Below, piece by piece: positions 32,655 to 56,348 of a stretch of DNA of 64,000 bases. A program made the translations under genes and the position numbers. Origin of the DNA: a virus (lineage: Duplodnaviria; Heunggongvirae; Uroviricota; Caudoviricetes); the IMG/VR virus record IMGVR_UViG_2778261223_000007, positions 1 through 64,000 of that record, one strand, 5' to 3'. The notes beneath the pieces are model-generated. The model saw only the letters and a list, made by a program, of their open reading frames with translations, was not told the origin of the DNA and made no database searches. The first letter of the stretch is position 1; every line of letters begins with the position of its first letter.

Positions 32655-32670
32655 TTAAATTTCTAACATA
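32655..32670 (+). promoter_or_regulatory. operator-like motif (C1-type operator candidate)
   Basis: TTAAATTTCTAACATA upstream of the RepL-like gene; one of eight related sites. Confidence 0.45.
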
Positions 32671-32841
32671 GTGTATTTATATACACTGTTGATCCTGGTG
32701 GATGGGATCGAGTAGGATCGCGGTCACTGCTCCGGTAGCGACTGCCAAAAAAGCAAAAGCCGCTGAGAAGCGGCTTTTTGGGTGTATAAATCCACTGCCA
32801 TAGATTTATACGGTAGATAGATTTTTTCACGGAACTATCTG

Positions 32842-33804
32842 GTGAGTATTTTAAATTCAGTTTCAGTAACTTTCAACACTTCTGAGTATAAAAACAACAC
32901 TGAATACCACAAAAAAATCAAAGGTCATCAGTTGAGTTTTTTTGCTCGTCATAGCGGTCTTCTTTCCCCTTCACATAGCGCCATTATTGCCGAGTTCGCC
33001 AACCTGGCAGGGTCTACCGATGAATACATGATCCGTCGCTCATATGCTGATATGTCCGAGATTACAGGACGCAGTATTTCTACTGTGCGCCGGGCATTTG
33101 CTGAAGCGACGAAGTGCGGAATGCTTGTTAAGCAACATCAGGTAGCGAATAACAATGCCCAGGTGTGTAACGTATATCGGTTTACGACACAATTTCTCCA
33201 CTTCATTCATGTAGCAATGGAGATAGGGGGTAAGCAGGGCATCAAATTTGCCAACGCCACAAAACTGGTTAAGCAGTTGATTTCAAAGGTTCGTTATTTT
33301 TTTGAAACTGGGAACCCCCTGTTCAAATTGAACAAGTCCCCCCATGTTCAAAATGAACAGCCAATAGAAAATAAGAGTCACTCTATAGCCAAAAGAAGAG
33401 AAAGATCATACGCGGTTCAGCCAAAGGCTTCACCAGCAGATAGTTCTCAAACGGATAACGGTGTACTGGATAAAAAACCAGTAATCAGGGAAGAACATAC
33501 CAACCACTGCCTGGCGGCGGCAAAAGCGAGAGCTGCAAAGCGTCGTTCAGACGAGGGGCACGCAAAACGGCAGGCTCTGTATCGTACCGCTGAAAAGCTG
33601 GCAAAAAAATTTGCATGGATACGTAGTGCCGCTACCGCAGTGAATAAGCCTAAACAATCCAATGCCCTGGATTTCTCAATGGATTATTCTGGCTCCCAGG
33701 GGTGTGCAACCATTGGTGAAGCCTTTGACCTGATGAAACAGCGTGGCTATCGGTCTGAATTTGACCGGGAGGATTGGTCAATCCCTGCGGGATTTAGGGG
33801 ATGA
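32842..33804 (+). CDS. RepL-like lytic replication initiator candidate (or KilA-like)
   Basis: 320 aa with N-terminal HTH (..MSEITGRSISTVRRAFAEATKCGMLV..); operator-like motif upstream, echoing the C1-controlled kilA-repL arrangement of P1. Confidence 0.35.
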   Translation: MSILNSVSVTFNTSEYKNNTEYHKKIKGHQLSFFARHSGLLSPSHSAIIAEFANLAGSTDEYMIRRSYADMSEITGRSISTVRRAFAEATKCGMLVKQHQVANNNAQVCNVYRFTTQFLHFIHVAMEIGGKQGIKFANATKLVKQLISKVRYFFETGNPLFKLNKSPHVQNEQPIENKSHSIAKRRERSYAVQPKASPADSSQTDNGVLDKKPVIREEHTNHCLAAAKARAAKRRSDEGHAKRQALYRTAEKLAKKFAWIRSAATAVNKPKQSNALDFSMDYSGSQGCATIGEAFDLMKQRGYRSEFDREDWSIPAGFRG

Positions 33805-33856
33805 CCTGTGTGTCTACAAAGCATCCCAATGATCGGAAAATGCCCGCTCGATGATT

Positions 33857-33875
33857 TATGTTAGAAAATTAATTT
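33857..33875 (-). promoter_or_regulatory. operator-like motif upstream of the immI-like locus
   Basis: Reverse complement AAATTAATTTTCTAACATA. Confidence 0.45.
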
Positions 33876-34093
33876 GCTGTTTCTAAATCGGAATGTATGA
33901 TCTGCATCATCGACTGAAGTCATCCATTGCTGAAATTTTTAGTTGATCTTCCATGTTTTCAGGCTTATATTCATGCCGTCGTAGCAAATTCTGCGACCAG
34001 GTTTGACAGCCTGAATGTTAGTGCGGACAACCGCAGATTTCCGATATTGCGGTATTTTTGTGTCCGTAAACCGCGTTACGCCCGAATTATGGT

Positions 34094-34168
34094 GGGGCGT
34101 GATGGGGAGGCTTCGGCCTGCTGGTTTCACTAACGCCAGTCTGTCAACCCTGTCACGTCCTGCCACCT
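34094..34168 (+). ncRNA. c4-like antisense regulatory RNA candidate
   Basis: Structured segment with GGTGG...CCACC closing stem; contains CACTAAC (34128-34134) and CTGTCAA (34141-34147), complementary to the repeated GTTAGTG and TTGACAG target elements flanking it; ends are approximate. Confidence 0.45.
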
Positions 34169-34217
34169 GTTTGACAGCGGGTAGCAGGTTGTTAAACCTG
34201 TTAGTGAGGCCGTAACT

Positions 34218-34442
34218 ATGGTTAATGCCAATCCTTGCTCACGTCCAGAATTCATCTGGCGTTTCCACTCCCTGCAAAAACACTGCGATCACTTCGCAAT
34301 TGCCGCAACCGAAAAAGAAGCCCGTTCTCTGATCCCTGATCAGCATGGTGTTCTTACTGGTCGTTTCTCTACTTCCCCACAACCAAACACTAATCCCTGG
34401 TATCGCAATATTACCAATCCCGGCATTGCGGAGGCACACTGA
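34218..34442 (+). CDS. small protein in icd-like position
   Basis: 74-aa ORF whose ribosome-binding region overlaps the downstream target repeat (GTTAGTGAGG..ATG); ATGA-coupled to the antirepressor gene. Confidence 0.35.
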   Translation: MVNANPCSRPEFIWRFHSLQKHCDHFAIAATEKEARSLIPDQHGVLTGRFSTSPQPNTNPWYRNITNPGIAEAH

Positions 34443-35149
34443 TGGATATCTGCATTCTTGAAAAGCCATCAATGACCAGCATTGAGATCGCGGAGCTGGT
34501 GGGAAAACGTCATGACAATGTGAAGCGTACCATTGAAACATTAGCCGAATCCGGCGTTATTGTTCGTCCTCAAATTGAGGATGAACCAAAAATAGATGTA
34601 ATGGGGCGTTCTCGATTAATTCAGGTGTTCCGATTTAGCGACGAGCAAGGCAAACGAGACAGCATCATTGTAGTCGCACAGCTTTGTCCTGAGTTTACTG
34701 CCCGGCTGGTGGACCGCTGGCGCGAACTGGAAGAACAAGTACGCCAGCCGTTGACCGAAATAGAGATGATCGCCGCAATGGCTGCAAATGCAGTTCAGCA
34801 GCAAAAGCGGCTTCATGCTGTTGAGTCAAAGGTTAGCCAGGTCGCTGAAACCGTCGAGCAAATCAAGAAGGGCAATATGCCAGATGGCTACATTGGCTAC
34901 CGCCAGCTGGCGGCGAAATGTGGCCTGACCGAAGCCAAATGCCGTAACCTGGTTAACGCTTACCGGATTCCCACCGATACACATGAGTTTTTAACTCCAG
35001 AGGGGGTATTGTCGCGTCGTTCCATCGTGGCCTTATCTCCCTTCATGAATGCTTTTAACCGGATGATGTCGGAGGCTGAACACCGAGGAAAACGCTGGTA
35101 TCACCCCAAAATGGGGCAATTCCAGGTGATCGGTTGGGGAGGTGAGTGA
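34442..35149 (+). CDS. antirepressor-like protein (Rha/ORF6N-type N-terminal domain)
   Basis: N-terminal ..MTSIEIAELVGKRHDNVKRTIETLAESGVI.. typical of phage Rha/antirepressor N-domains; downstream of the c4/icd-like elements. Confidence 0.5.
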   Translation: MDICILEKPSMTSIEIAELVGKRHDNVKRTIETLAESGVIVRPQIEDEPKIDVMGRSRLIQVFRFSDEQGKRDSIIVVAQLCPEFTARLVDRWRELEEQVRQPLTEIEMIAAMAANAVQQQKRLHAVESKVSQVAETVEQIKKGNMPDGYIGYRQLAAKCGLTEAKCRNLVNAYRIPTDTHEFLTPEGVLSRRSIVALSPFMNAFNRMMSEAEHRGKRWYHPKMGQFQVIGWGGE

Positions 35150-35346: not shown

Positions 35347-35354
35347 AGCGTGAT

Positions 35355-35864: not shown

Positions 35865-36015
35865 ATTTTTCTCCCGGTCATGGGTTAATAAGTAGGCAAA
35901 CTATGGGGAGTATGTGATTTTGACGGTAGTATCGTCCCCCTGAAAATAACATTCTCCATACCCTCTCAACCGTACCGCATAGCGGAATTTTTTACGGTTT
36001 AGAGGGGGAAATCCT

Positions 36016-42852: not shown

Positions 42853-42888
42853 CAGATAAGGAGCGGCCCCAACTGGGGCCGAATTTGA

Positions 42889-43323
42889 ATGACGACATTA
42901 ATTGACACTGTAAAACCGACGGAATCCTACCTTGAGGACATTTTGCCGCAGGCGCTCAATGGCAGGAGTGAAGAGGCGTTTCTGGATGCATATCTGAATG
43001 GCATGGTGGAAAGGCTGAAACGAGATCCACAGCTTTATCACCTTTATGGGCCGTGGTGGCCTGCGCTTAAAACGTTATTGCTGGAGCGCGGCGACATATC
43101 ATTTGGACAAGTGGTAGATAGTGATGTGGCAGAGATCTACAAAATGAGTCGCCCGGCGCTTACGGTTTTGGCTGGGCATCTGTATTCGAGCGATCGCCTG
43201 GAAAATGACGCGGTATACAATCCTGTTCATGCTCTGGAAGTCGCACCTTATGCCGATGATACAGAGCCATACGTGTACACAAGTTACGACGAGTCTATAG
43301 AGAAATATCGAATTATGGGGTAG
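42889..43323 (+). CDS. hypothetical protein co-transcribed with darB-like gene
   Basis: 144-aa ORF 37 bp downstream of darB, no terminator between. Confidence 0.4.
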   Translation: MTTLIDTVKPTESYLEDILPQALNGRSEEAFLDAYLNGMVERLKRDPQLYHLYGPWWPALKTLLLERGDISFGQVVDSDVAEIYKMSRPALTVLAGHLYSSDRLENDAVYNPVHALEVAPYADDTEPYVYTSYDESIEKYRIMG

Positions 43324-43325
43324 CC

Positions 43326-43586
43326 ATGCGAAAGAATCGTAGGTTTACGGTCGAAGACCTAAAGGAATATTCCATATCGAAGGGGTATATCCTTGAGTTC
43401 CACCGATACAAGAAGGTTTTTACGCTGCGAAAAGCAGAAAACCCTGCGAACTGGAGCTGGATATACTTTCCTCACACCGATGATAAGTTGGTAGAACTTG
43501 TTGATGATTTAACCTATGAAGGTTGGTTGATCGCAATCGACAAGACAATCAAAGAATTATCCGAACAGGATAAAATAACCCTTTAA
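43326..43586 (+). CDS. hypothetical protein (86 aa)
   Basis: Tightly linked (3-bp gap) to upstream ORF. Confidence 0.35.
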   Translation: MRKNRRFTVEDLKEYSISKGYILEFHRYKKVFTLRKAENPANWSWIYFPHTDDKLVELVDDLTYEGWLIAIDKTIKELSEQDKITL

Positions 43587-43722
43587 AAATAACAGGTTGG
43601 GTAAATGCCATGCGATTTACCCTCCTTGTTGATTAAGGTCGCTCTTTACTCTAAAAGCAAATCCGACCTGTTGCATATAGACCATCCTTGAGTAGTATCT
43701 CTCTTGTTTTACAAATCTAACG

Positions 43723-44217
43723 TTGTTGTTATTATTTCGCATATTTACTATCAATTGGTGTGTTAGAAAAATAGCGCGAAAGAGAAGGCGTCGCAGTGAA
43801 TATTCTGAAACATCCCCACATGCCGCAGCTCTTAGAGAACTGGAGAAAAACCCAGATCTAATCAAAAGGAACCATGAGCATTACGAGCAGGTTCGCGTCC
43901 TGGACTGGATGTATCGCAATATGCGTTATGTGTATGAGCATACTCACGCCACTCCAAACGGTGGCCTGCGAGGCATAAGGACGGCAATAAAAATGGTGGC
44001 AGAGGGCCAAAAGAAGGGATATCCCGATCTTTCTATAGACCTTGCTTGTGGGGGATACCACGGAATGCGCATTGAGATGAAACATGGGAGAAATCGCCTG
44101 ACTCCCGAACAACTCGTCTGGATGACTCGCCTCACAGAAGCCGGTTACTACTGCTTTGAGGCGCGCAGTGCCGCTGAAGCCATAAAAGCTATCACGGAGT
44201 ATGTTTGTCTTGATTAA
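43723..44217 (+). CDS. VRR-NUC domain nuclease candidate (start uncertain)
   Basis: C-terminal ~100 aa show the VRR-NUC pattern (..KKGYPDLSIDL...IEMKHGRNRLTPEQLVWMTRL..); true start probably downstream of the operator-like site at 43758 (GTG 43797 or a later ATG). Confidence 0.45.
   Translation: MLLLFRIFTINWCVRKIARKRRRRSEYSETSPHAAALRELEKNPDLIKRNHEHYEQVRVLDWMYRNMRYVYEHTHATPNGGLRGIRTAIKMVAEGQKKGYPDLSIDLACGGYHGMRIEMKHGRNRLTPEQLVWMTRLTEAGYYCFEARSAAEAIKAITEYVCLD
43758..43773 (-). promoter_or_regulatory. operator-like motif
   Basis: Reverse complement TATTTTTCTAACACAC, upstream of the VRR-NUC coding region. Confidence 0.4.
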
Positions 44218-44231
44218 ACGGAGAAATCGTT

Positions 44232-44728: not shown

Positions 44729-44734
44729 TTGCAT

Positions 44735-44761
44735 AAAAACCCGCCAATTAGCGGGTTTTTT
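44735..44761 (+). terminator. intrinsic terminator
   Basis: AAAAACCCGCCAATTAGCGGGTTTTTTG. Confidence 0.65.
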
Positions 44762-44801
44762 GTTTATTGCATCTTCCGATACCGTCATCAAACTAATAAA
44801 A

Positions 44802-44822
44802 TATGTTAGAAAACTAATTTAA
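44802..44822 (-). promoter_or_regulatory. operator-like motif
   Basis: Reverse complement TTAAATTAGTTTTCTAACATA immediately upstream of the 44842 gene. Confidence 0.45.
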
Positions 44823-44841
44823 CAAAGTGACGGGAACAGCA

Positions 44842-46050
44842 ATGAGTCAACACACTGATACTTCTAATCTGGAAATTATCTCGACAGCAATTGAAACGCT
44901 GCGCACACAAATCGCTCTTATACAGAAACGGAATCCTGGTGATGACCTGTCAAAGCGACTGCACGAGAGTGTCATTGCCACTACAGATAACCTGGTGGCG
45001 GAAATCAACAAGCTGCTTGATGATGGGGCAGTTGATTACAATAAGCTGGTGGATCAGTTTGAGGAATACCAACAAGCCGTTAATGATGGCTTGATCCGTT
45101 TTTCACAAGTCACAGGCGTATCAGCGACAGTTGAAAGCCTGGGTGATGCAGTTAATCAATTTGCCACGAATATGCGTAATGAGATCGGCAATCTGGAAGC
45201 GCGTCTTGAACAGGCAAATACACTGCGTAAATCTGCTGAAGCCGATTTGAACCGTTACAAAAAAGACTATCCGCCCACCCTGACAAAGCGGCTGGATGTT
45301 GCGGAGAAGGATAACCGCACGCTGAAAAGAGAGCGCCGGGAACTAAAAGAGCGTTTAACCAAGCTCAATCAGCAATGCATTGATTATCAAGGCGAAGGCG
45401 TCACACTGCGTAAAAAGTTGGCTACAGCGCAGAGCATTATCGAAACATTAAAGCGAGAGTGCTCACAGCTTGGTCACGATCTGAACCGTGCTTGTGGCAT
45501 GGGACAAAGACCAGAGACATTTCCACTTATGTATGACGGAAGGGATGCCATTGCCTACATCCATGAGTATCCGCACGGCCTGGTTGCGGAAACTGGGCAG
45601 CGTGGCGAAGCACTGCTGACGGCTAATTACCATCAACAAATCAGAACCAATCGCCTGTTAACGATGGATGTGATCCCATCGGTATGGGGAACGCCGCTTT
45701 ACTATCGCCTGCCGGGCTTCGAAAAGGACTGGAATACCGACATAGACGAATGTCTCGCAGATAAAATTATGGCGTACCTGGAGACGGATTTTCCGCGCTT
45801 ATATCGCCGGATTATGGACTCAAAGGATGCGCCAATCGATGAATTAAAAATGCGTCCGGAGACGCTGGAGGCAATCAAGCAGACGGAGTTTGATACTGTA
45901 TTCAGTGTGGCCTGCATTCCAAGCTGTTTCCATGAAAGCATTCCGTTCATGCAAGGAGATCGTCGTCAGGAAATCATTGACGCTTGCCGGGTATGGGCGA
46001 ACGAATGGGATAAGAAGAATGGGGGTGTAGAAGATCTTTACGGGAAGTAA
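44842..46050 (+). CDS. hypothetical coiled-coil protein, operator-flanked
   Basis: ~402 aa from ATG 44842 (track uses GTG 44827); N-terminal coiled-coil; operator-like motifs at both ends of the gene. Confidence 0.45.
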   Translation: MSQHTDTSNLEIISTAIETLRTQIALIQKRNPGDDLSKRLHESVIATTDNLVAEINKLLDDGAVDYNKLVDQFEEYQQAVNDGLIRFSQVTGVSATVESLGDAVNQFATNMRNEIGNLEARLEQANTLRKSAEADLNRYKKDYPPTLTKRLDVAEKDNRTLKRERRELKERLTKLNQQCIDYQGEGVTLRKKLATAQSIIETLKRECSQLGHDLNRACGMGQRPETFPLMYDGRDAIAYIHEYPHGLVAETGQRGEALLTANYHQQIRTNRLLTMDVIPSVWGTPLYYRLPGFEKDWNTDIDECLADKIMAYLETDFPRLYRRIMDSKDAPIDELKMRPETLEAIKQTEFDTVFSVACIPSCFHESIPFMQGDRRQEIIDACRVWANEWDKKNGGVEDLYGK

Positions 46051-46068
46051 TGTGTTAGAAATCTAAAA
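46050..46068 (-). promoter_or_regulatory. operator-like motif
   Basis: Reverse complement TTTTAGATTTCTAACACAT overlapping the stop codon of the upstream gene. Confidence 0.4.
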
Positions 46069-46800
46069 TCACAATTCGAATGTGTTGATTGTGAAGGTAA
46101 CTTAACATAGAATTTTCCTTGCTGGTGGGCGGTACCCACGTTTCGCTTGCTGGGCTTGATAGTCACTTATTGGTTATTGTTCGCCCACCAGCATTTAACA
46201 AATTAAAGCGTTAGAAAAGTATAGTAACGCAAGAGCACGCTTTGGCACTGTGCAGGCAAAAGTTCAGCAGGTTTAGTGCGGAAAGTGGTTTCAGAGAGAG
46301 CACTTTGCGGAGTAAACGACAATACATGTTGAGCCACGGAAGGTCTTTTTAAGGTGTTCATTGATGATGGTCCGGCAGAGAGTAACGGTACATGCTGCAT
46401 CTAATCATCAATGCACATCTTCAACATTAAGGAGGCATAGGGATTTTTGTGGCGGTTACCTTTTGCCCTGAGTCTCCTTAATGTTGCAGTAATGCACCTA
46501 TGCGGATGTGGCCTTGCATTGTGTCTTGAAAGAATGGGGTAAGGCCGGGGATATCCCCAGGGGGAGGCACTCCCGCTGCAACGAACAGCCACAGACGGCA
46601 GTCGAGTGATGGGAACGTGAAAAGACTTTAAACCTCGTTATGGCTGGCGTGGCAAACGCGACAACCGAGACAGAGCGGTGACGGGCGGAGAGAGTGCCGC
46701 ATCAAGAAAGAAGCCGACTTGTGATCCCTTTCAGCGGGCATTTGAAAGTGAATCCAACTCAGGCAGTCGGCTTCTTTCTTGTGTGAGATGTAGCGTATTT

Positions 46801-46824
46801 GCCCATCTTCGGGTGGGCTTTTTT
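46801..46824 (+). terminator. intrinsic terminator within the noncoding region
   Basis: GCCCATCTTCGGGTGGGC hairpin followed by TTTTTT; preceded by a 15-bp perfect-stem hairpin (46705-46779). Confidence 0.55.
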
Positions 46825-47284
46825 AGGGTTTTCGTCATGGTTAGCGACTTTGCGGCGGTTTAGAAACCGACCATTAAAGTAAATGCAAACGATGATCTGA
46901 TGATGGTAGCGGCCTAAGAAGCCAGACGCCACGGGGTATGAGTCGTCCCCCGTCAAAAAATCGACCGCAGAGTGTCCCCGTCTGTGTATTAGGGAACGGG
47001 GAGGCATAACAGGCAAGGGCGCTGGTGTGATTAACCAGATGAATGAGAAGGGTCAGGTCTTTCTGGTCAGCGCCCTTACCTGTTACGTCCCTCCCGCGTA
47101 ACAGCCATTGCTTAATGGCATCCTGGGGGAATTTCTTGTAACGGGTATATCCCGTCATGCTGAAGGCGCTAATCACGCTGGAAGCCAGGGTTGTGCATCC
47201 CCTGTTACCGAATTGCAGCCAGGGCGCGGTGCGCCGAAAAGCATACGGAGGTGGAAGCCCTCGCCGGAGACGTACCCGGCAAGT

Positions 47285-47360
47285 GATGGTGTAGCTCAGC
47301 GGTTAGAGCGGTTGACTGTTAATCAACGGGTCGATGGTTCAAATCCATCCACCATCGCCA
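47285..47360 (+). tRNA. tRNA-Asn (anticodon GTT)
   Basis: Cloverleaf read by hand: acceptor GATGGTG/CACCATC, D-stem GCTC/GAGC, anticodon loop CTGTTAA, T-loop TTCAAAT, discriminator G + CCA encoded. Confidence 0.85.
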
Positions 47361-47362
47361 AT

Positions 47363-47438
47363 GCCGGTTTAGCTCAGTTGGTAGAGCGCCTGCCTTGTAA
47401 GCAGGATGTCAGCGGTTCGAGTCCGTTAATCGGCACCA
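47363..47438 (+). tRNA. tRNA-Thr (anticodon TGT)
   Basis: Acceptor GCCGGTT, D-arm GCTCAGTTGGTAGAGC, anticodon loop CTTGTAA, T-loop TTCGAGT, CCA encoded; close to E. coli tRNA-Thr as recalled. Confidence 0.85.
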
Positions 47439-47903
47439 GCACAACAGGTAAGGGTATTTTGCGACGTCGGAGATCGCCGAGCTTGGCAGAGGGTTCGAAT
47501 CCCTACGAAGTACCCTTACCGTTGTGATGAAGTGCAGCTCTTTGAAGCAACCAGAAGATAAGCATCTGGCTTCACAACATAAACCGCAGGAACGACCAAT
47601 AAACGGTAGTCCGTACGGAGAACACCCCGTTGAGGAAGAGGCCTGGCCGGAACCGTAACCGGCACTACAACGTTGAGAACACTGGCGTAACGGGGTCATA
47701 TCCCAATCTACGAATAAATGTTGCGTTGCAGCGTGACAACCAGTGTTCTCAACGTTGTGGTGGATTCGCAGGCTGATGCGATAGCTTTCTTGGATGTTAG
47801 GGAAATGCGGCCGCAAATCTTCCCTTTCGCGAGCGGTGATCGTCCGTAGTCCTAATTGGCTGCACCGTATGCCGGAGATTCAGTACCGGCCACCACAACG
47901 GCC

Positions 47904-47990
47904 GGAGAGTAGGGCGCATGGTGCTCAAGCGGTCTTGAAAACCGTCCCATTGCGCAAGCGATGATGGTTCGATTCCATTACTCTCCGCCA
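47904..47990 (+). tRNA. class II tRNA-like element, anticodon TGA (Ser-like), non-canonical D-arm
   Basis: Acceptor GGAGAGT/ACTCTCC + G + CCA; anticodon stem-loop GCGGT-CTTGAAA-ACCGT like tRNA-Ser(UGA); T-loop TTCGATT; long variable arm; D-arm does not fold cleanly, so possibly a pseudo-tRNA. Confidence 0.4.
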
Positions 47991-48257
47991 GCGCAACGTT
48001 AAGAGTATTTGGCTAATTAAGCGAATGCCGGAAGCAGAACCGGATCACCAAATGCGTACAGGCGTCATCGCCGCCCAGCCAGCCAAGTGCTCTTACCATT
48101 GCGGTGAATGCGGCTAAGCGCACGCGGAACAGTTAAAACAATCCTCCTTAGTGGTTAAGTCAAAAATCCCGGCGTTAATTGTTAACTGGTTAACGTCACC
48201 TGGAGGCACCAGGCACCGCAACCTAATAAATACGTCATGTTTATTGAGGGATAACCA

Positions 48258-48692
48258 ATGTTCGGTAAATTTTTCGGTAAGAAAGTCGCTTCAGCAAAAG
48301 TAGAGCTGAAAAGGGTTGAGAATCGCGATCTGATGGAGGCCATTATCGGTGGCTGTTTGTTGGTGTCTGCCGCAGATGGTGAAATCGAAAAGGAAGAAAC
48401 AGCGAAACTTGATCAGCTTGTCCGCTCTAATCCTCGCTTAAGTCATTTTGGCAACGAAATTACCGCAACAATCACCCGTTTTACTGAGCAACTGGAAGCT
48501 GGTTTCCGTGTTGGTCGCATGAATATCCTTCGCGAAATTGAAGATATCAAAAATGATCCAAAAGAAGCGGAAGAAGTATTCGTTAACATGCTGACGATTG
48601 CAGAAGCGGACGGTGAAATCGAGCCAGCAGAACACAAAGTACTGGAAGAAGTAGGCCGTCGTTTGGGCCTTCGTGTGGAAGATTATCTGTAA
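48258..48692 (+). CDS. TerB-like protein (tciA-like)
   Basis: 144 aa with two ..AADGEIE..E.. / ..EADGEIE..E.. TerB-type repeats; sits between tRNA genes as the tci genes do in P1 (recalled). Confidence 0.55.
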   Translation: MFGKFFGKKVASAKVELKRVENRDLMEAIIGGCLLVSAADGEIEKEETAKLDQLVRSNPRLSHFGNEITATITRFTEQLEAGFRVGRMNILREIEDIKNDPKEAEEVFVNMLTIAEADGEIEPAEHKVLEEVGRRLGLRVEDYL

Positions 48693-48856
48693 TGATTGGC
48701 AAGGCGCGTATTGCGTGCGCCATTGGTTTTCTCGTTTTGTCCGTGCTGGTGGATTTCACCAGCAAAGTGATGTCGGTGTTGGCTGATGGGGCACTGGTTT
48801 CAGTAGCTGTGGTATTGCTATTGCCGATTATTAAAGCTGCGTTCAGGAACTCATGA
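48692..48856 (+). CDS. small membrane protein (tciB-like position)
   Basis: 54-aa hydrophobic ORF (MIGKARIACAIGFLVLSVLVDF..) starting at a TAATG overlap with the TerB-like gene; not in the supplied track (below size cutoff). Confidence 0.4.
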   Translation: MIGKARIACAIGFLVLSVLVDFTSKVMSVLADGALVSVAVVLLLPIIKAAFRNS

Positions 48857-48966
48857 TGGATTTTTGGACGTATATTGATAAGAACCCTGGATGGTCTTTG
48901 CTATTTCTGCTTGTGATCGTATACGGAGTAGAACAAGTAGCGAAGAATCTCAGGCGTCGAAAATAA
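48853..48966 (+). CDS. small membrane protein (tciC-like position)
   Basis: 37-aa ORF MMDFWTYIDKNPGWSLLFLLVIVYGVEQVAKNLRRRK, overlapping the previous stop; hand-translated. Confidence 0.35.
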   Translation: MMDFWTYIDKNPGWSLLFLLVIVYGVEQVAKNLRRRK

Positions 48967-48975
48967 AAACTAATT

Positions 48976-49051
48976 GGCCCCTTAGCTCAGTGGTTAGAGC
49001 TGGCGACTCATAATCGCACGGTCACCGGTTCAAGTCCGGTAGGGGCCACCA
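48976..49051 (+). tRNA. tRNA-Ile2 (anticodon CAT, ileX-like)
   Basis: GGCCCCTTAGCTCAGTGGTTAGAGC...CTCATAA...GGTTCAAGTCC...AGGGGCCACCA; near-identical in outline to E. coli ileX as recalled; CAT anticodon could also read Met. Confidence 0.8.
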
Positions 49052-49505
49052 TATTTGGTTGTAACACGGCGTCTGGCACATGCGTCGTTAGCGGTCTGGT
49101 GACGTTAAAGGGGTTACCTTTTCCCCTAGCTCAGGCAACAAACCAGGTAGCCGGAATGTGCAAGCCCCGTTCATATCGTCGGACCGAGGATTCACCATCC
49201 TGGCGATTCGGTGTGACAGCCGGAAGAGCACGGCGCACAACAGGAAAAGGCGTTTAATTAGCGTGAGCGCCGTTTCCGTTGTGGTAATTGCGGCTATGCG
49301 CTCGTGACGAAGCCATTTTCATTCACTACGTTCTGATAAGTGACGTCGCCAGGAGTGGCTAACCTGGCAGGTGGAGGCACCACCGCCACAACTCCTTTCA
49401 ATTCATCATATAGCCGCTCAGGCTGTACCCCTTAATTAATACGAAGTTACGACATCACTACCGGCACTTCCGGGGGATAGTCGCGCGTGTAAAAAAGGAG
49501 ACGTT

Positions 49506-50081
49506 ATGTTAATGGCGAACGATAACGCATATGCAGAAGAAGATCTCATTTTGAGTGACTTCATAGGGAAGCGTGAACGCTGGACCCAAAAGCGAGAGGA
49601 ACTTTACGCCTCATTAGTTCGCAAAGGCGTCAATATCGAAACCGCACAGAGCGGCGATATGACAGTGGTAAGCGTTGGATTGCACGGTGTAAGCGTGTCA
49701 GCAATCAATCATGAGCCATACGTTGCGTTATCCGAGTCAATGGTAAGGTTAGTTAAGTTCCTGAAGTACACAGAAGCGAATAATGTAATCATTGGCAAAA
49801 AGAATATCCCTTTTTCCTCGGCTTTTTACTGGATGATGAAAGGGCTTGATGCCCGGCGGACATCATGGCCTAAAGGGAGCTATATATCGATGTTCCGTGG
49901 CAGCATTGGCAGCAAAGAAAAGCTCTTCGAATTCTTGCCGGAAGAGGCATTCGATATTGTGGAAGGGTGCGATGTGATGGTGATGCCTCGCCTGGTAATG
50001 ATGAATGGTGATTTACAGGCGCAGACAGACTGGTTTGCAACTGGTGTGGATATTATCGCGACTGACTGGGAGGCTTTCTGA
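49506..50081 (+). CDS. hypothetical protein with C-terminal DUF2829-like region
   Basis: 191 aa; ..PFSSAFYWMMKGLDARRTSWPKGSYISMF.. resembles the DUF2829 signature; weaker than ORF 57728. Confidence 0.35.
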   Translation: MLMANDNAYAEEDLILSDFIGKRERWTQKREELYASLVRKGVNIETAQSGDMTVVSVGLHGVSVSAINHEPYVALSESMVRLVKFLKYTEANNVIIGKKNIPFSSAFYWMMKGLDARRTSWPKGSYISMFRGSIGSKEKLFEFLPEEAFDIVEGCDVMVMPRLVMMNGDLQAQTDWFATGVDIIATDWEAF

Positions 50082-50473
50082 TGTACGGGACTACCAAATT
50101 AAGCACTCAACAGGCCACCAATATTGAGTGGTCTATCGCTAACTGTAAGATCGTGTCATGCAATGCCACGCGTACTGATGTGGGCCATAAAAGCACTATA
50201 ACAGGCTATCTAGTAATGACCACCAGGGGGATGAGGGTTAGATTTCGTTGGAAAGCAGAGCAAGTAACGCCATTCAGAGAGCCATCAATGCCGCTGCAGG
50301 TTGAGCAGGATTATCTATGTTTACCAGAAATAGATGGCGGAATGCTGGTGGAGTCTGATGGTAGTAAGGCTGATTTTGAAGCCAATTTGAAGCTGGCACA
50401 GGCCGTAATCAATAGTTATCGCGGACAGTGGATCGCAAAAGTGAAACATGTTGTTCGTTTGTCTCGCTGGTAG
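50081..50473 (+). CDS. hypothetical protein (130 aa)
   Basis: ATGA-coupled to upstream ORF. Confidence 0.35.
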   Translation: MYGTTKLSTQQATNIEWSIANCKIVSCNATRTDVGHKSTITGYLVMTTRGMRVRFRWKAEQVTPFREPSMPLQVEQDYLCLPEIDGGMLVESDGSKADFEANLKLAQAVINSYRGQWIAKVKHVVRLSRW

Positions 50474-50491
50474 TATTAGATATTTGGTATT

Positions 50492-50506
50492 AATTTTCTA
50501 ATACAA
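50492..50506 (+). promoter_or_regulatory. operator-like motif (variant)
   Basis: TTAATTTTCTAATACA upstream of the gene preceding pacA. Confidence 0.35.
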
Positions 50507-50581
50507 TCATCTTTTTGCCAGTCTATACAGTTTTAACATTCTCATTATCATCCCCTCGGTCATTTCCTGCCCGGGGGATTA

Positions 50582-50974
50582 ATGGAACAAATCAGCAGCG
50601 CAGAAATTGCGGATATCATGATCAGGGCTGACTGCTATCTGACAGTCACTGAAATTACCACTCTCGCCAAAGAAAAATACCCTCATCTCCATGTTTCACG
50701 AGTAAGTGTAACTAACATCATTCGTCATTTTGTTCGTTCAAGCAGGGCAATCTGTGAGCTTGATGATCGTGTGTATCCACGAAAATACTGGTTGCATGGC
50801 CTGAACGGATATCAGTTCAAGGTGCGTGGGCGAACCCCGGAATACGGCAGTTTACTGGTTAAAAACTGTAGCAGGAAATCAGTCGAACAGGCGCGAAAAG
50901 AGCAACGAGAGCTGGTGGACATGGCGAATAAGCTGTGGAATGCCGCCGTTAAAAAGCGTGGTGTTGCTTTATGA
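50582..50974 (+). CDS. hypothetical protein in lpa-like position (possible late regulator)
   Basis: 130-aa basic protein immediately upstream of and overlapping pacA-like gene; positional inference only. Confidence 0.3.
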   Translation: MEQISSAEIADIMIRADCYLTVTEITTLAKEKYPHLHVSRVSVTNIIRHFVRSSRAICELDDRVYPRKYWLHGLNGYQFKVRGRTPEYGSLLVKNCSRKSVEQARKEQRELVDMANKLWNAAVKKRGVAL

Positions 50975-52335
50975 GTCTGGTTAATTGGGAGGAGCACCGC
51001 GCCCGCTTTATGGCGTTGCGTGAAGAAAAAGGGATCACTGTAAAGGAATACTGTGAGGAGCATGGCCTTAGCTTCAATACAGCCAGAAAGCATCTCAATA
51101 TGAAAAAAAATGAGGTGCGGTCGCAGGTAAAGACAACAAAAAAAAGCACCAAATCACCTGAAAAAAAACGGGCGGGAAGAGCAACAAAAAAGCTGGAAGA
51201 GGGTGCAGAAAAAACAAAATTTACAGAAATTGACAATTCGCAGGGCGCAGGTTCTTTCCGAAGTATGCCGAGAAAGAAAACTTCGGATCATGAAAATAAT
51301 TCAAATAATAACAATGAGATAAAAGAATCCGTCAGGAGATCATTGCGCGAAAAAATGGCGAAAATGATCCCCGAAGAAGATAAAAGCGCCCCAAAAATTG
51401 AGGGATCTTCTGCAATGATCCCTGACGGTGCTGTGCAGCGTGCCACATTGCCAACTACGAATGTGGCTCGCGATATGATGAAGAACGGCGCAGAAGAACA
51501 CCTGCGGTTAGCAATTCAAATGGCGCAAGAGCGCGCACTTCAGTATCAAAGCATTGTTGATCAGGAGGCCGAACGTCTACAGGCGGAAATAGACGCCTTG
51601 GGCGATAAAGAGCCAGAAGGAATGCACCCTGGGCAGCGCCTTCTCGGTCTAATCAGTGACGCGGCCTACTACATGAATGATTTTATCAGTAGGTTGGCAG
51701 CTATATATCAGTCCGAACAAAAGCTGCGACAGGGGGATGAAAAGCTTCGTCAGAGCGCTCGCCAGCAAGCATTCAAAGAGGCTGAGGCCAGAGAAAAACT
51801 CGAATTAGCACGCCTACAGGCCGAACAGCGTGGCAAAGAGATTGAATATCGCATTGGCGCTGACGCACGCGCAGCCAGAGTTATCGCCGCCGCTATACGT
51901 ATGCGTGAGCGCGAGGAACTGGATGATATCGGTGTTGCTGAATACATCGAGCGCCAGGGTGTCAGCGTCCCGGCTATCCTCGCGGCGCGCGCGGCGAAAG
52001 CTATCACTCTTCTCGAACCACCTGTTTCTGACGTCAATGATGTTGATGATGAACAGCTGGACAAAGAGGCAAGGGAGTTTGCAACGCTTCAGGCTAACCA
52101 TCCGCAATGGCTGGCAGAGCGCCGGGCGGATGTGGCAACCATTGTTGAAGAATTGGGGTGCGGAGATTACGACCGCAATGGCGAGCGTAAAGCAGGAGAA
52201 TTCGAGGCCAACGACGAAGAGCTGGATATTGACCCTTCGGCAACGGCTGAAATTTACGGTGATTATGATGCATCTGATGCAGGGTATGACGCCGGAGATG
52301 ATGATATCGCGATAGAACCGCCGGAGGATGATTAA
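50971..52335 (+). CDS. terminase small subunit candidate (PacA-like)
   Basis: 454 aa; N-terminal HTH-like region, Lys-rich linker, acidic C-terminus; contains a GATC cluster (51286-51420); overlaps the large-subunit gene start. Confidence 0.5.
   Translation: MSLVNWEEHRARFMALREEKGITVKEYCEEHGLSFNTARKHLNMKKNEVRSQVKTTKKSTKSPEKKRAGRATKKLEEGAEKTKFTEIDNSQGAGSFRSMPRKKTSDHENNSNNNNEIKESVRRSLREKMAKMIPEEDKSAPKIEGSSAMIPDGAVQRATLPTTNVARDMMKNGAEEHLRLAIQMAQERALQYQSIVDQEAERLQAEIDALGDKEPEGMHPGQRLLGLISDAAYYMNDFISRLAAIYQSEQKLRQGDEKLRQSARQQAFKEAEAREKLELARLQAEQRGKEIEYRIGADARAARVIAAAIRMREREELDDIGVAEYIERQGVSVPAILAARAAKAITLLEPPVSDVNDVDDEQLDKEAREFATLQANHPQWLAERRADVATIVEELGCGDYDRNGERKAGEFEANDEELDIDPSATAEIYGDYDASDAGYDAGDDDIAIEPPEDD
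51286..51420 (+). other. candidate pac site (GATC / TGATC(A/C) cluster)
   Basis: Five GATC within 135 bp (51286, 51338, 51366, 51404, 51417), several as (T/G)GATC(A/C), inside the small-terminase gene. Confidence 0.4.
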
Positions 52336-53843
52336 TGGCTGGAGGGCGCAAGATTAAATGCGTCACCAGCGATCCACGCTGGCGCGATATGGTAATCAAA
52401 TACCGCTACAACTTTACCCAAGCTGTTGTCGATATTTTTGGGATGTTCCCCTCCCACCAGCAGCAGCAGATCATTCAGTCCGTGCAGGAAACGGGGAGTA
52501 GGACGACCGTCACGTCCGGACACGGAACGGGGAAGTCGTCCCTTACCGCGATGTTGCTGTTGATTTTCATGATCCTGTTCCCCGATGCCCGTGTCATCAT
52601 TGTTGCTAACAAGATAGGCCAGGTAAAAACAGGCGTATTCAAATACGTTAAACAGTATTGGGCGAATGCAGTTAAGCGTCATGGGTGGTTGCAGACCTAT
52701 TTTGTCCTCTCTGACACCATGTTTTATGAGCGCTCCCGTAAGGGGATTTGGGAAGTTCTCTGCAAAGGTTATCGACTCGGCAACGAAGAAGCGCTGGCGG
52801 GGGAACACGCGGCACATTTGCTTCTAATTCTGGATGAAGCATCTGGTATATCTGATAAGGCGATCGGCGTAATGACCGGTGCTCTTACTGAAGAAGATAA
52901 CCGGATGTTGATGCTATCCCAGCCAACAAGGCCAAGTGGTTATTTCTACGATTCGCACCATTCTCAAGCAAAAACCCCAGACAACCCGAAAGGGATCTGG
53001 ACAGCAATTGTTCTTAACTCGGAAGAATCACCGTTCGTCACACCACAATTCATCAAGCAGAAGCTTCTGGAATATGGCGGGCGCGATTCTATTGAGTACA
53101 TGGTCAAGGTGCTTGGTCAGTTCCCACGAGAAATTAACGGCTATTTGCTTGGTCGTGATGAATGCGATCGCGCTGCTCGCCGCAAGGTGTTGTTGGAGAA
53201 AAACTGGGGATGGGTGGCAACGGCTGACGTTGGTAATGGGCGAGATAAGTCGGTCCTCAACATCTGCAAGGTATCAGGTCACAGGGATAAGCGGCGCGTT
53301 GTTAACTTTAAGGTAATGGAGATGCCTGGCACTATGGACCCATTGGCCTTTGCTGACTTCATATATAACGAATGTACGCCGGAAAAATACCCGAATATAA
53401 CAATCGCGGTTGATGCTGATGGTTTTGGTTCTGATACGTGTGCGCAGTTGGTGCGTCGTGGTGCGAACCCGGTACGTATTCGGTGGGGAAAACCCATGTT
53501 TGCGAACAAAGACAGGGAGCGATTTGTTAATCAGCGTGCCTACGCAAATATTATGGCGCGTGATGCCATAAAGTCAGGGCGTATGCGGATAGACAGTGAC
53601 CCTAAAACGGCAGAGCAAGCGTCAAAAATCCCCTTTTTACTGAATGAAGAAGGGAAAATGGCGATGATGCGCAAAGAGCACATGCGGCAAAAGCTAAACA
53701 TCAAATCGCCTGACCGATGGGATACCTACTGCTTCACTATGCTGGTGGACTATGTGCCTGCTAATGAAGATATTGGTGCCGAAATGGCAACTTTCCGAGA
53801 TCAGGTTCTGGCGGATATCGAAATGCCGGATCTGGATATATAA
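52335..53843 (+). CDS. terminase large subunit (PacB-like)
   Basis: 502 aa; Walker A VTSGHGTGKSS and Walker B LLLILDEASG; C-terminal nuclease-like region. Confidence 0.6.
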   Translation: MAGGRKIKCVTSDPRWRDMVIKYRYNFTQAVVDIFGMFPSHQQQQIIQSVQETGSRTTVTSGHGTGKSSLTAMLLLIFMILFPDARVIIVANKIGQVKTGVFKYVKQYWANAVKRHGWLQTYFVLSDTMFYERSRKGIWEVLCKGYRLGNEEALAGEHAAHLLLILDEASGISDKAIGVMTGALTEEDNRMLMLSQPTRPSGYFYDSHHSQAKTPDNPKGIWTAIVLNSEESPFVTPQFIKQKLLEYGGRDSIEYMVKVLGQFPREINGYLLGRDECDRAARRKVLLEKNWGWVATADVGNGRDKSVLNICKVSGHRDKRRVVNFKVMEMPGTMDPLAFADFIYNECTPEKYPNITIAVDADGFGSDTCAQLVRRGANPVRIRWGKPMFANKDRERFVNQRAYANIMARDAIKSGRMRIDSDPKTAEQASKIPFLLNEEGKMAMMRKEHMRQKLNIKSPDRWDTYCFTMLVDYVPANEDIGAEMATFRDQVLADIEMPDLDI

Positions 53844-53844
53844 A

Positions 53845-53861
53845 GCCCCGCGATGCGGGGC
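53845..53861. terminator. hairpin between convergent genes (putative terminator)
   Basis: GCCCCGCGATGCGGGGC perfect hairpin between convergent genes; weak T-run. Confidence 0.35.
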
Positions 53862-53870
53862 CGGTTGTGA

Positions 53871-54908
53871 TTACCAGAGCTTCGCGGCGTACTGCGTTTG
53901 GGGGAATGTGTATCCGTAACGTTCTTCGATTGCTTTGCCGTATTTTTTACGAGCTTCATTCAGTTTAATGCCGGTCAGGTCGTCTCCAGAGGCCATCATT
54001 ACGTCTAACAATTCCAGATCCATTTTATCCAGCCTTGCCATTGCTTCACGTGATGTACGTATCTTACGCTCAATGATATGGCGAATAGCCGGATCGGCAT
54101 CCTCCAGCATCTTAGCGGATTTCTGCTTAAGGCTTTCATTGCGAATATCGATGTTCCTTAAGATGTACGACTTCGCAACGTAGCTTGGCTGGTGTTTTTC
54201 CAGGTCACGAACACGATATAAGTTAAAATCGCCGAGAAGGCTGCAAGGTACCGATTCGACGCCAGAATAAATTGTAATGCTCCGGCGTTCACCAACATTA
54301 TTGACAACGGGGATCGTTGTCTTCGGTTGTCTTGCGAAAACCAATGCGCCATGTGCGCCAACTCTAAAGCGAGAAAGGGCATTGCTGCCTTCGATGTTTG
54401 TTGTCAGCACAACATCTGTATATGCCTCTTTACGCGCCCGGTAGATCTCGCCTTCAGGCTCAGCTTCAAAGAAGCGCTGTTCTTCTTCAAGAGCACCTAC
54501 GATTTGAGAAAAAACCCTATTTTTCAGGCTTTTCTTTATGATTTTGTCGTATTTTTTTAGCAATTGTTCACGTGTAAATGTACGTGTTGTTGTAGCGCTT
54601 TGCACAACGACATGCGTGCTTTGATTGGTGTCCTCAATGATGAATGGGATCGGAGAATATACAGACTCAACAATGTTCGACGCTTTGCCGTCGGCATCGC
54701 GGCACATGTCAACGAAGGCTTTCCATTCAGCAAGACATTTTTCAGCTTCTTCTAATATGTTTTGGTCATGCGTTAATGCAACATGGCGGAATTCCTCGCC
54801 AGCATAACTGGTATCATGGAAAACAGAGTTTGCGACCACCAGCTCTTTCCACCGTTCAGCGGTTTGCAGGAACCGTTTGTACTCTTTCTCGATCGACTTC
54901 TTACTCAT
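53871..54908 (-). CDS. hypothetical protein at the c1-like position (candidate regulator)
   Basis: 345-aa ORF between terminase genes and the lox-like site, with an operator-like motif 15 bp upstream of its start; function not supported by any motif. Confidence 0.35.
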   Translation of the reverse strand: MSKKSIEKEYKRFLQTAERWKELVVANSVFHDTSYAGEEFRHVALTHDQNILEEAEKCLAEWKAFVDMCRDADGKASNIVESVYSPIPFIIEDTNQSTHVVVQSATTTRTFTREQLLKKYDKIIKKSLKNRVFSQIVGALEEEQRFFEAEPEGEIYRARKEAYTDVVLTTNIEGSNALSRFRVGAHGALVFARQPKTTIPVVNNVGERRSITIYSGVESVPCSLLGDFNLYRVRDLEKHQPSYVAKSYILRNIDIRNESLKQKSAKMLEDADPAIRHIIERKIRTSREAMARLDKMDLELLDVMMASGDDLTGIKLNEARKKYGKAIEERYGYTFPQTQYAAKLW

Positions 54909-54922
54909 TATTCCTACTCGAT

Positions 54923-54937
54923 TTAGTTTTCTAACAT
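54923..54937 (+). promoter_or_regulatory. operator-like motif
   Basis: TTTAGTTTTCTAACATA in the promoter region of the minus-strand gene starting at 54908. Confidence 0.45.
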
Positions 54938-55117
54938 AAAATTACTATGACAAATTTATGTCGAATAACAGAGTGAGTAAAGGATCGAACTGTGATTTTT
55001 TGTCATCAATTTTAGAAAACCAACCGTAGAAACCACACTTCGCTAATTAAAGACCATGAAGGCAACGTGTTACTGGTCATCATCAATCTATGATGGATTA
55101 AAAAAAATCGGCATTTT

Positions 55118-55151
55118 ATAACTTTAAATAATTGGCATTATTTAAAGTTAG
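55118..55151 (+). promoter_or_regulatory. lox-family recombination site (rox-like): 13/14-bp inverted arms around a short spacer
   Basis: ATAACTTTAAATA-ATTGGCAT-TATTTAAAGTTAG; core TAACTTTAAATAAT-TGGC-ATTATTTAAAGTTA equals the rox site of phage D6 Dre (reverse orientation) as recalled; 150 bp upstream of the Cre-like gene. Confidence 0.8.
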
Positions 55152-55302
55152 GCTATAATCATGTGTAGATGAACAGTATTGACATCACTGAAAATACGTG
55201 CATCCAATCAAAGGCTTGTATTTTGAAAATTAACTTATAGCTACCCTGTCATTTTTATATTTTTCGCGTAGCTTCATCTGTATATAGAGGTGAAATGGTT
55301 TC

Positions 55303-56331
55303 ATGAGTGAATTAATTATCTCTGGCAGTTCCGGTGGTTTTCTGCGCAACATTGGCAAAGAGTACCAGGAAGCCGCAGAAAACTTTATGCGGTTCATGAA
55401 TGATCAGGGTGCTTATGCGCCGAATACTCTGCGCGACCTCCGGTTGGTGTTTCATTCCTGGGCGCGCTGGTGTCACGCTCGCCAGCTTGCCTGGTTTCCG
55501 ATCTCACCAGAAATGGCCCGCGAGTATTTTCTTCAGTTGCATGATGCCGATCTGGCTTCGACCACCATTGATAAGCACTACGCCATGCTTAACATGCTGC
55601 TTTCTCATTGTGGCCTTCCGCCACTTTCGGATGATAAAAGTGTTTCTCTGGCTATGCGGCGTATCCGGCGCGAAGCGGCAACGGAAAAAGGCGAACGAAC
55701 AGGCCAGGCTATACCGCTGCGATGGGACGACCTGAAACTGCTCGACGTCCTGTTGTCCAGGTCAGAACGGCTGGTGGACCTGCGCAACCGGGCTTTTCTC
55801 TTTGTTGCATACAATACGCTGATGCGTATGTCGGAAATCTCGCGTATTCGTGTAGGAGATCTGGACCAAACAGGTGACACTGTCACGCTACATATTTCAC
55901 ACACGAAGACAATAACGACCGCCGCCGGGCTTGATAAGGTGCTTTCCCGTCGCACTACTGCTGTGCTGAATGACTGGCTGGATGTTTCCGGGCTTCGTGA
56001 ACATCCTGACGCGGTGCTGTTCCCGCCGATACACCGTAGCAATAAGGCCAGGATTACGACAACGCCCCTTACTGCACCTGCAATGGAGAAAATATTCAGC
56101 GACGCCTGGGTGTTGCTGAATAAAAGGGATGCCACGCCAAACAAAGGGAGATACCGGACGTGGACCGGGCATAGTGCTCGTGTCGGGGCCGCTATCGATA
56201 TGGCTGAAAAGCAGGTGTCTATGGTGGAGATTATGCAGGAAGGAACCTGGAAGAAACCGGAAACACTTATGCGGTATCTGCGCCGTGGCGGTGTGTCTGT
56301 GGGGGCTAATAGCCGCTTGATGGATTCATAA
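55303..56331 (+). CDS. dre: Cre-family tyrosine recombinase (Dre-like)
   Basis: 342 aa; aligns along its length with P1 Cre from memory at roughly 40-45% identity (..VSLAMRRIRRE.., ..LRNRAFLFVAYNTLMRMSEISRIRV.., ..WTGHSARVGAAIDMA.., ..WKKPETLMRYLRRG with catalytic Tyr). Confidence 0.85.
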   Translation: MSELIISGSSGGFLRNIGKEYQEAAENFMRFMNDQGAYAPNTLRDLRLVFHSWARWCHARQLAWFPISPEMAREYFLQLHDADLASTTIDKHYAMLNMLLSHCGLPPLSDDKSVSLAMRRIRREAATEKGERTGQAIPLRWDDLKLLDVLLSRSERLVDLRNRAFLFVAYNTLMRMSEISRIRVGDLDQTGDTVTLHISHTKTITTAAGLDKVLSRRTTAVLNDWLDVSGLREHPDAVLFPPIHRSNKARITTTPLTAPAMEKIFSDAWVLLNKRDATPNKGRYRTWTGHSARVGAAIDMAEKQVSMVEIMQEGTWKKPETLMRYLRRGGVSVGANSRLMDS

Positions 56332-56332
56332 A

Positions 56333-56348
56333 TTAAATTTCTAACACA
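56333..56348 (+). promoter_or_regulatory. operator-like motif
   Basis: TTAAATTTCTAACACA two bp after the recombinase stop codon. Confidence 0.45.

Follow-up and report, generated by a model that had tools for sequence, protein, structure and literature searches.

A dispersed intergenic motif as the probable C1 operator set of a phage D6-type plasmid prophage

Which regulator recognizes a short asymmetric motif that recurs between the genes of a phage genome, and which transcription units does it control? The question is raised by a 64,000-nucleotide stretch of a Caudoviricetes record (IMG/VR IMGVR_UViG_2778261223_000007, positions 1 to 64,000; the whole stretch is hereafter called the window), in which an examination of the letters alone (the sequence-only reading) had noticed a ~16-bp motif at eight positions and attributed it to a C1-type repressor regulon with scattered asymmetric operators like those of phage P1. 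By megablast of positions 43000-56500, the window is ~99.5% identical to Escherichia phage D6 (MF356679 / NC_050154) and, in that same stretch, 99.9% identical to several ~90 kb Salmonella and Escherichia coli plasmids. Phage D6 exists as a plasmid prophage and is a distant relative of P1. The gene names used here were taken from the D6 records AY753669 (immC region) and MF356679 / NC_050154, where c1, dre, rox, lpa, and pacAB are annotated as found in the window and where no operator features are annotated. No description of D6 operators was found in the literature searched, which did not include Sauer and McDermott 2004 or Gilcrease and Casjens 2018, and a text search of the literature for the motif returned only unrelated primer matches. 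The analyses below indicate that the motif is very probably the operator set of the D6-type C1 repressor encoded by 53871-54908, a conclusion drawn from its enrichment, its placement at spots syntenic with P1 operators known from experiment, the homology of the repressor, and the conservation of the sites in related elements.

Distribution and conservation of the motif

The repeated TTTCTAACA motif is real. The window contains eight copies of this core against 0.53 expected, and none of 100 dinucleotide shuffles reached eight. Seven of the exact cores fall at positions that had been listed previously, namely 32660(+), 33859(-), 43761(-), 44804(-), 46053(-), 54928(+), and 56338(+). The remaining listed position, upstream of lpa at 50495(+), holds TTTCTAATA in place of the exact core, and all eight positions therefore hold the motif. 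The count and the length need correction, since the eighth exact core, at 696-704(-), lies outside the range covered by the sequence-only reading, which brings the strong sites to nine, and the conserved block is ~19 bp long rather than ~16. This block, spanning -8 to +10 around the core, reads A-w-w-TTA-r-T-TTTCTAACA-y-A and is asymmetric in its information content. It was derived, together with the corresponding matrix, from an alignment of the nine window sites with four further D6 sites outside the window. Beyond the window, D6 carries sites ahead of hrdC-dcm-dmt, ref, and another icd-antirepressor locus, as well as in the ppp-pdcB gap. A 16-mer version, allowing up to 3 mismatches, gave 10 matches in the window against 1.31 expected. 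With the matrix, nine strong (19-30 bits) and four weak sites were obtained in the window, and 15 matches of at least 14 bits, in both orientations, in the D6 genome as a whole, where 0.4 would be expected.

Strong sites in the window:
694-712, minus strand: operator candidate, 27.1 bits; 14 bp upstream of the orf52-like gene, in a divergent region shared with the major capsid gene
32652-32670, plus strand: operator candidate, 26.7 bits; 172 bp upstream of repL; equivalent to P1 OrepL/Op53
33857-33875, minus strand: operator candidate, 29.9 bits; after repL; equivalent to P1 Oc4/Op51 (or Orlf/Op55)
43759-43777, minus strand: operator candidate, 19.4 bits; at the 5' end of the pmgM-like (VRR-NUC) gene; equivalent to P1 O26/Op82
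44802-44820, minus strand: operator candidate, 30.0 bits, the best site; equivalent to P1 OpmgRb/Op86
46051-46069, minus strand: operator candidate, 27.5 bits; begins 1 bp past the pmgS stop
50487-50505, plus strand: operator candidate GTATTAATTTTCTAATACA, 24.8 bits; 77 bp upstream of lpa; equivalent to P1 Olpa/Op94
54920-54938, plus strand: operator candidate GATTTAGTTTTCTAACATA, 27.8 bits; 12 bp upstream of the c1 start codon
56330-56348, plus strand: operator candidate, 28.6 bits; overlaps the dre stop codon, 45 bp upstream of the orf117-to-dut operon

Weak sites in the window:
43705-43723, minus strand: 13.3 bits; overlaps the -35 of a promoter-like site at 43708-43735
46207-46225, minus strand: 8.1 bits in the window; ~155 bp downstream of 46051-46069
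50472-50490, minus strand: 7.1 bits; inverted partner of the lpa site, in a ~34-bp palindromic bivalent arrangement
55008-55026, minus strand: 7.4 bits, core TTTCTAAAA; second c1-upstream site, inverted, ~88 bp from 54920-54938

Two of these sites differ by single bases between the window and the D6 record: the core of the repL site is TTGCTAACA in D6 (22465-22483) and TTTCTAACA in the window (32652-32670), and for the later of the two sites past pmgS the core is exact in D6 (8910-8928) and TTTCTAACG in the window (46207-46225).

The motif had been described as always intergenic. The refuting condition set along with it, a similar frequency in coding or shuffled DNA, was checked with the exact core on the full annotated D6 genome (91,159 bp, of which 10.2%, or 9.3 kb, is intergenic), where 11 of the 12 exact cores lie between genes, against 0.125 expected from composition-matched simulation (maximum of 2 in 2000 simulations). 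D6 coding DNA holds a single exact core, with 0.8 expected, i.e., chance level. The bias corresponds to a binomial P of 1.4e-10 and to a ~90-fold enrichment confined to intergenic DNA. "Always" needs one qualification: site 43759-43777 falls within the first codons of the pmgM-like open reading frame (ORF) as annotated in D6 with a TTG start; in the related contig L007 (see below), the called pmgM-like gene begins 15 nt downstream of the equivalent site. An unbiased ranking of D6 intergenic 8-mers also placed TTTCTAAC/TTCTAACA on top, alongside a late-promoter box and the repA iterons. The motif thus neither matches its frequency in coding DNA nor is accounted for by the shuffled controls.

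With the D6 gene names, the genes next to which the sites had originally been placed can be specified: the RepL-like gene, immI-like locus, VRR-NUC gene, and 407-amino-acid gene are repL, c4-icd-ant, pmgM, and pmgS, and the pre-pacA gene, the c1-position gene, and the recombinase are lpa, c1, and dre. Site 33857-33875 lies 90 bp upstream of the c4-a1b1/C4 RNA/icd/ant locus, and 44802-44820 lies 7 bp upstream of the annotated pmgS start, just past a terminator-like hairpin and abutting a weak -10. The other site flanking pmgS, 46051-46069, is upstream of a promoter-like TTGATT-17-TAGAAT (46085-46113) and of the tRNA-tciA operon, and more likely controls that downstream operon, by analogy with P1 Oban, which precedes the tRNA-tciA-ban operon of P1. 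Site 54920-54938 is presumed to be an autoregulatory site equivalent to P1 Oc1/Op99.

The sites were then compared with those of three D6-clade relatives: L012, a Shigella dysenteriae plasmid with a C1 protein 70% identical to that of the window, and two metagenomic contigs, L007 (C1 51% identical) and L008 (44%). TTTCTAACA is kept in these elements at orthologous places, among them those at c1, repL, lpa, and pmgM, on either side of pmgS, at ref and ppp|pdcB, and at the end of the recombinase gene. For individual window sites, 54920-54938 (at the same place), the second c1-upstream site, and 56330-56348 have equivalents in all three relatives, 43759-43777 and 44802-44820 in L012 and L007, and the repL site in L012 (40380-40398). 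The intergenic DNA upstream of lpa and that between dre and c1 align with a mean column identity of 59-64%, and yet a TCTAA(C/T)A block is invariant upstream of lpa across the four genomes and the c1-proximal site is conserved in the dre-c1 region.

Some of the sites are bivalent: two 19-mers in inverted orientation share 4 bp at their 5' ends (partner offset of 15) and form a 34-bp near-palindrome such as TGTGTTAGAAATTCAAAATTGAATTTCTAACACA, with the TCTAA cores 21 bp apart; most are single. Strong bivalent arrangements occur in D6 at hrdC and ppp|pdcB and in L012 at three loci; in the window the arrangement is weak, both at lpa and at the immI site, where the partner scores -3.9 bits against a background mean of -34.

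The C1 candidate and the P1 operators

The product of 53871-54908, which had been singled out as the candidate repressor, corresponds to the annotated c1 of D6. It aligns with P1 C1 with 20% identity over 242 amino acids (BLASTP, pairwise E value of 9e-8; total lengths of 345 and 283 amino acids, respectively). The protein itself has no match in a local Pfam copy; its homologues in a large protein collection carry PF27008 (Phage_P7_repressor_C1), the family of P1 and P7 C1, and its gene lies between pacB and a Cre-like recombinase gene, as in P1. Judged by sequence, D6 C1 is a remote but genuine member of the P1/P7 C1 family at the syntenic position. The C1 relatives were drawn from PLSDB and Logan contigs; a D6-type C1 is encoded in 149 records of the plasmid collection, and no C1 relative was found in the genome contigs scanned. 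There is no solved structure for the C1 family and no relative in PDB, and an AlphaFold2 model built from 8 sequences (pLDDT of 66.5, pTM of 0.42) was too poor to interpret.

P1 C1, which controls RepL and Lpa, has 22 operators that are 17 bp long, asymmetric, and dispersed (PMC8546580). In the P1 reference record C1 operators are marked as protein_bind, from experiment, and our comparison covers annotated features among which are Oref, Omat, Ossb, Oc4 (Op51), OrepL (Op53), Orlf (Op55), Odmt (Op68), Obanab (Op72), O26 (Op82), Oppp (Op83), OpmgRa/b (Op86), OpmgT (Op88), and Olpa (Op94). For Oc1/Op99, which lies beyond the features compared, Op99-like sites adjoining P1 c1 were found by a consensus scan. 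The neighborhoods of C1 operators in P1 match those of the D6-type sites at c1, lpa, repL, c4-icd-ant, pmgM/pmgL, pmgR/pmgS, and the tRNA/ban-type operon. P1 Odmt and Oref are matched in position by the D6 sites at hrdC-dcm-dmt and ref, P1 Oban/Op72 (or OpmgT/Op88) by 46051-46069 ahead of the tRNA-tciA operon, and Oref, which lies downstream of cre/c8, is also comparable in position to 56330-56348. The P1/P7 and D6 types thus have in common a homologous repressor (PF27008) and many scattered, asymmetric operators of ~17-19 bp in either orientation, some of them bivalent, and the sites in the window occupy the neighborhoods of P1 C1 operators in agreement with the regulon originally proposed, as far as this can be predicted from sequence. 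Lambdoid CI/Cro systems likewise rely on a prophage repressor that silences lytic genes and autoregulates via DNA sites, but their operators are palindromic, clustered at two control regions, and bound by helix-turn-helix dimers, whereas the D6-type sites are asymmetric, spread genome-wide, and located at a dozen or more transcription units.

What differs between the two types is the operator sequence, TTTTCTAACAyA in D6 and ATTGCTCTAATAAATTT in P1. A search of the window for the P1 consensus, allowing up to 3 mismatches, found nothing, bearing out the suggestion that the specificity would differ from that of P1, and no P1 sequence reaches operator strength with the D6 matrix (best match, 13.5 bits). 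On these two results, the element is of a different immunity type within the P1-type C1 family, as judged from sequence, and not of P1/P7 specificity. The geometry of the bivalent sites also differs: P1 Obanab has overlapping 3' ends and a core spacing of 12 bp, the D6 type joined 5' ends and a core spacing of 21 bp.

A further difference concerns the proteins around the repressor. In P1, C1 activity is set jointly by C1, Coi, and Lxc (PMC8546580). No homologue of P1 Coi, Lxc, Ant1, KilA, or C8 was detected by tblastn in the window or in all of D6 (best E value for Coi/Lxc, 0.48), and Ant1/2 likewise went undetected; the antirepressor candidates of the D6-type element are Roi/Rha-like, not Ant1/2, and Icd is 61% identical between P1 and the D6-type element. 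The c1-dre interval (54909-55302) contains no ORF of at least 60 codons, and hence no coi-sized ORF, and the ORF at the lxc-syntenic position (43326-43586) has no similarity to Lxc. The P1-known modulators of C1 thus appear to be missing or replaced in D6, where analogues without sequence similarity are possible, and since two of the three proteins that set C1 activity in P1 lack detectable D6 homologues, the D6 switch probably differs from that of P1 in its modulators of C1 activity.

More distant syntenic elements, from Leclercia (L009), Pantoea (L010), and Citrobacter (L011), with C1 proteins only 28-30% identical (PacB, 74-79%), contain nothing that the D6 matrix scores at 11 bits or higher. 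When their intergenic words were ranked de novo, TTCTAAGG came first in Citrobacter (9 copies, 8 of them intergenic, in 7 segments); TTCTAAGG also recurs in Leclercia and TTCTAAA in Pantoea, both among the top recurrent intergenic words, and the motifs of all three elements occupy the same syntenic spots. In a Xenorhabdus element (C1 24.5% identical), AAATTCTAA is among the top recurrent intergenic words, and AAATTCTAA-N4-TTTTTTAT is found upstream of c1, lpa, and the VRR-NUC gene. A (T/C)TCTAA string is common to all five clades, including P1 ATTGCTCTAATAAATTT, followed by CA in D6, GG in Citrobacter and Leclercia, AA in Pantoea, and TA in P1, with other flanking positions differing too. A common core with clade-specific flanking positions is a reasonable inference from these sequences, and the TCTAA core, which emerges from the cross-clade comparison alone, is suggestive of the D6 motif being a diverged relative of the P1 operator. 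We tentatively extend this to a scheme, about which we are somewhat more doubtful than confident, in which all P1/D6-like C1 repressors would read (T/C)TCTAA, the next two or three bases would set the immunity group, and the D6 branch would operate without Coi/Lxc and with another bivalent geometry. If this were true, immunity types would be readable from sequence across a large family of plasmid prophages.

Alternative binders and the predicted circuit

Could a protein other than C1 be the one that reads the motif? The alternative that survives best, though we regard it as unlikely, is another regulator encoded by the element, either Lpa, with the motif acting as a late-promoter element, or an unrecognized second repressor. 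D6 does contain a second dispersed intergenic motif, AAATCACA, followed after 7 nt by a -10-like hexamer and read towards the gene, which precedes the late operons (portal, ddrB, tail-fiber R, pmgB/sit, capsid gene 23, gene 7, mat, and peptidoglycan hydrolase). It is likely to be the D6-type Lpa-dependent late-promoter box, and is related to, yet different from, the AAGTGACTT box of P1. The window shows no enrichment of the P1 late box ACAAGTGACTT (14 versus 17 expected). Copies of the D6-type box in the window are as follows:

714-721, 769-776, 9402-9409, 16778-16785, 27388-27395, 29894-29901, and 46066-46073, minus strand: late-promoter box (TGTGATTT on this strand)
35913-35920 and 54991-54998, plus strand: late-promoter box

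TTTCTAACA was also considered as the late promoter and rejected, D6 having its own distinct box AAATCACA. Sites 694-712 and 46051-46069 directly abut late-promoter-like boxes and the neighboring pmgM and pmgS are named "morphogenetic," as would suit a late regulator; moreover, motif variation among clades cannot separate regulators that diverge together. Against this, the late operons are marked by the separate AAATCACA-N7-(-10) motif, distinct from the operator, while the TTTCTAACA sites are found at early and immunity genes (c1, repL, c4-icd-ant, and lpa itself), stand in both orientations relative to the adjacent gene, and coincide in position with P1 C1 operators.

We give still less credence to a host-factor site or promoter element (-10/-35 or UP-like, recognized by host RNA polymerase or a nucleoid protein). 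The motif is AT-rich, lies in promoter-bearing intergenic DNA, and contains a TAACAT that resembles a weak -10 hexamer. Half of the sites, however, have C for the essential final T of a -10 hexamer; the orientation relative to the downstream genes is inconsistent (43759, 44802, and 33857, for example, are antisense); and the motif varies from one phage clade to another despite their common enterobacterial hosts and is absent from P1 in the same host. Nonfunctional repeats, i.e., chance likeness or relics of recombination or of mobile-element ends, have in their favor only the shortness of the core and can be practically dismissed given the exclusively intergenic enrichment, the conservation of the core at orthologous positions in genomes with C1 proteins 44-70% identical, and the lack of flanking repeats or transposase genes at the sites.

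Several observations nevertheless weigh against the sites being C1 operators. The absence of detectable Coi and Lxc homologues means that the circuit is not a simple copy of that of P1. Compared matrix to matrix, the operators of P1 and D6 show no significant similarity (P = 0.27), and they align best with one of them reversed. Hexamer pairs of the sigma-70 type in the vicinity of the sites are weak and show no enrichment, and the lpa and tRNA-operon sites lie 16-19 bp upstream of the best -35, versus an overlap in P1. Finally, all proteins of these elements diverge together, so that the clade variants do not single out C1. Because of this codivergence and of the nonsignificant matrix comparison, the clade variation of the motif fits C1 as the binder without proving it. 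The orientation of the operators relative to syntenic genes, used to align P1 and D6 sites, gave a mixed outcome.

Placement relative to promoters was examined further. Sigma-70 scans showed no enrichment (12 versus 18 expected and 3 versus 3.2 expected), and a relaxed scan gave only 8-of-12 matches. At c1, 54920-54938 is flanked by the start codon on one side and a weak promoter-like site on the other. At pmgM, the site pair brackets a promoter-like site matching at 10/12, TTTACA-16-TATTAT (43708-43735), with 43759-43777 located 24 nt downstream of its -10. These placements are tentative, since promoter-like matches are not enriched overall.

With C1 as the preferred regulator, a circuit can be outlined in which we infer the identity of the binder, repression upon binding, and the stoichiometry. 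The prophage C1 would bind each asymmetric site of ~19 bp, as a monomer if it follows the P1 type, some of these sites being paired with an inverted one at a distance of 15 bp. It would thereby keep down the units that initiate lytic growth or counteract repression, namely repL (for lytic replication), lpa (the late-promoter activator), the immunity locus c4-icd-ant, the pmgM and pmgS units, the tRNA/tciA operon, the post-dre operon, and orf52-53. Outside the window, ref, hrdC-dcm-dmt, and the second icd-ant locus of D6, which has its own candidate operator, would likewise be repressed. C1 would also autoregulate c1. As the operator sequences differ, D6-type and P1-type elements are predicted to be heteroimmune.

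E. coli, Salmonella, Shigella, Citrobacter, and Pantoea commonly carry D6-like and P1-like phage-plasmids. An operator consensus would allow immunity groups to be assigned by sequence, predicting which elements superinfect or coexist, and would supply a parts list of prophage-repressed transcription units. It would also point to an orthogonal repressor/operator pair beside the already-used Dre/rox recombinase of the same region. The general picture of how such phages are controlled is unchanged, and the D6 regulon would be an ordinary but useful extension of a well-known system.

Neighboring genes and other features

The genes referred to above are located in the window as follows, named after the D6 records:

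288-680, minus strand: orf52-like gene
32842-33804: repL
34218-35149: icd plus Roi-like antirepressor
43723-44217: pmgM-like VRR-NUC gene
44827-46050: pmgS
50582-50974: lpa, followed by pacA and pacB
53871-54908, minus strand: c1, 345 amino acids, named in both AY753669 and MF356679
55303-56331: dre, Cre-like recombinase, with rox site
within the range covered by the motif (32655-56348): darB, ulx, and pmgR

RNA features were identified with Rfam and, for the tRNA genes, also with ARAGORN:

33965-34017, plus strand: c4-a1b1 targets
34085-34170, plus strand: C4 antisense RNA
47285-47360, plus strand: tRNA-Asn
47363-47438, plus strand: tRNA-Thr
47904-47990, plus strand: tRNA-Ser-UGA
48976-49051, plus strand: tRNA-Met/CAT

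The Rfam matches to both c4-a1b1 and the C4 RNA establish that a P1-type immI antisense control of icd-ant is present and confirm the locus after 33857 as a true immI locus. The four tRNA genes share their strand with tciA; the GenBank table of D6, where three of them are entered on the other strand and one is missing, seems to contain an annotation slip.

The ribosome-binding site of lpa is enclosed by a conserved hairpin at 50553-50581 (CCCCTCGG...CCGGGGG). In L007 and L008 the paired positions differ (CCCTCCGG...CCGGAGG), apparently in a compensatory manner, and the structure suggests translational or attenuation control of the late activator. In the distant elements, repeated GTGATCAC palindromes, each with a GATC Dam site, are found upstream of c1 in the recombinase-c1 gap (L009, ~9400-9440; L011, ~19800-19850). 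Chi sites (GCTGGTGG) are abundant throughout, with 31 copies in the window against 1.6 expected, 23 of them on the plus strand (e.g., at 2102, 5257, 34495, 46121, and 50344), and are equally plentiful in the relatives, as illustrated by the 50 copies in 40.7 kb of the Citrobacter plasmid.

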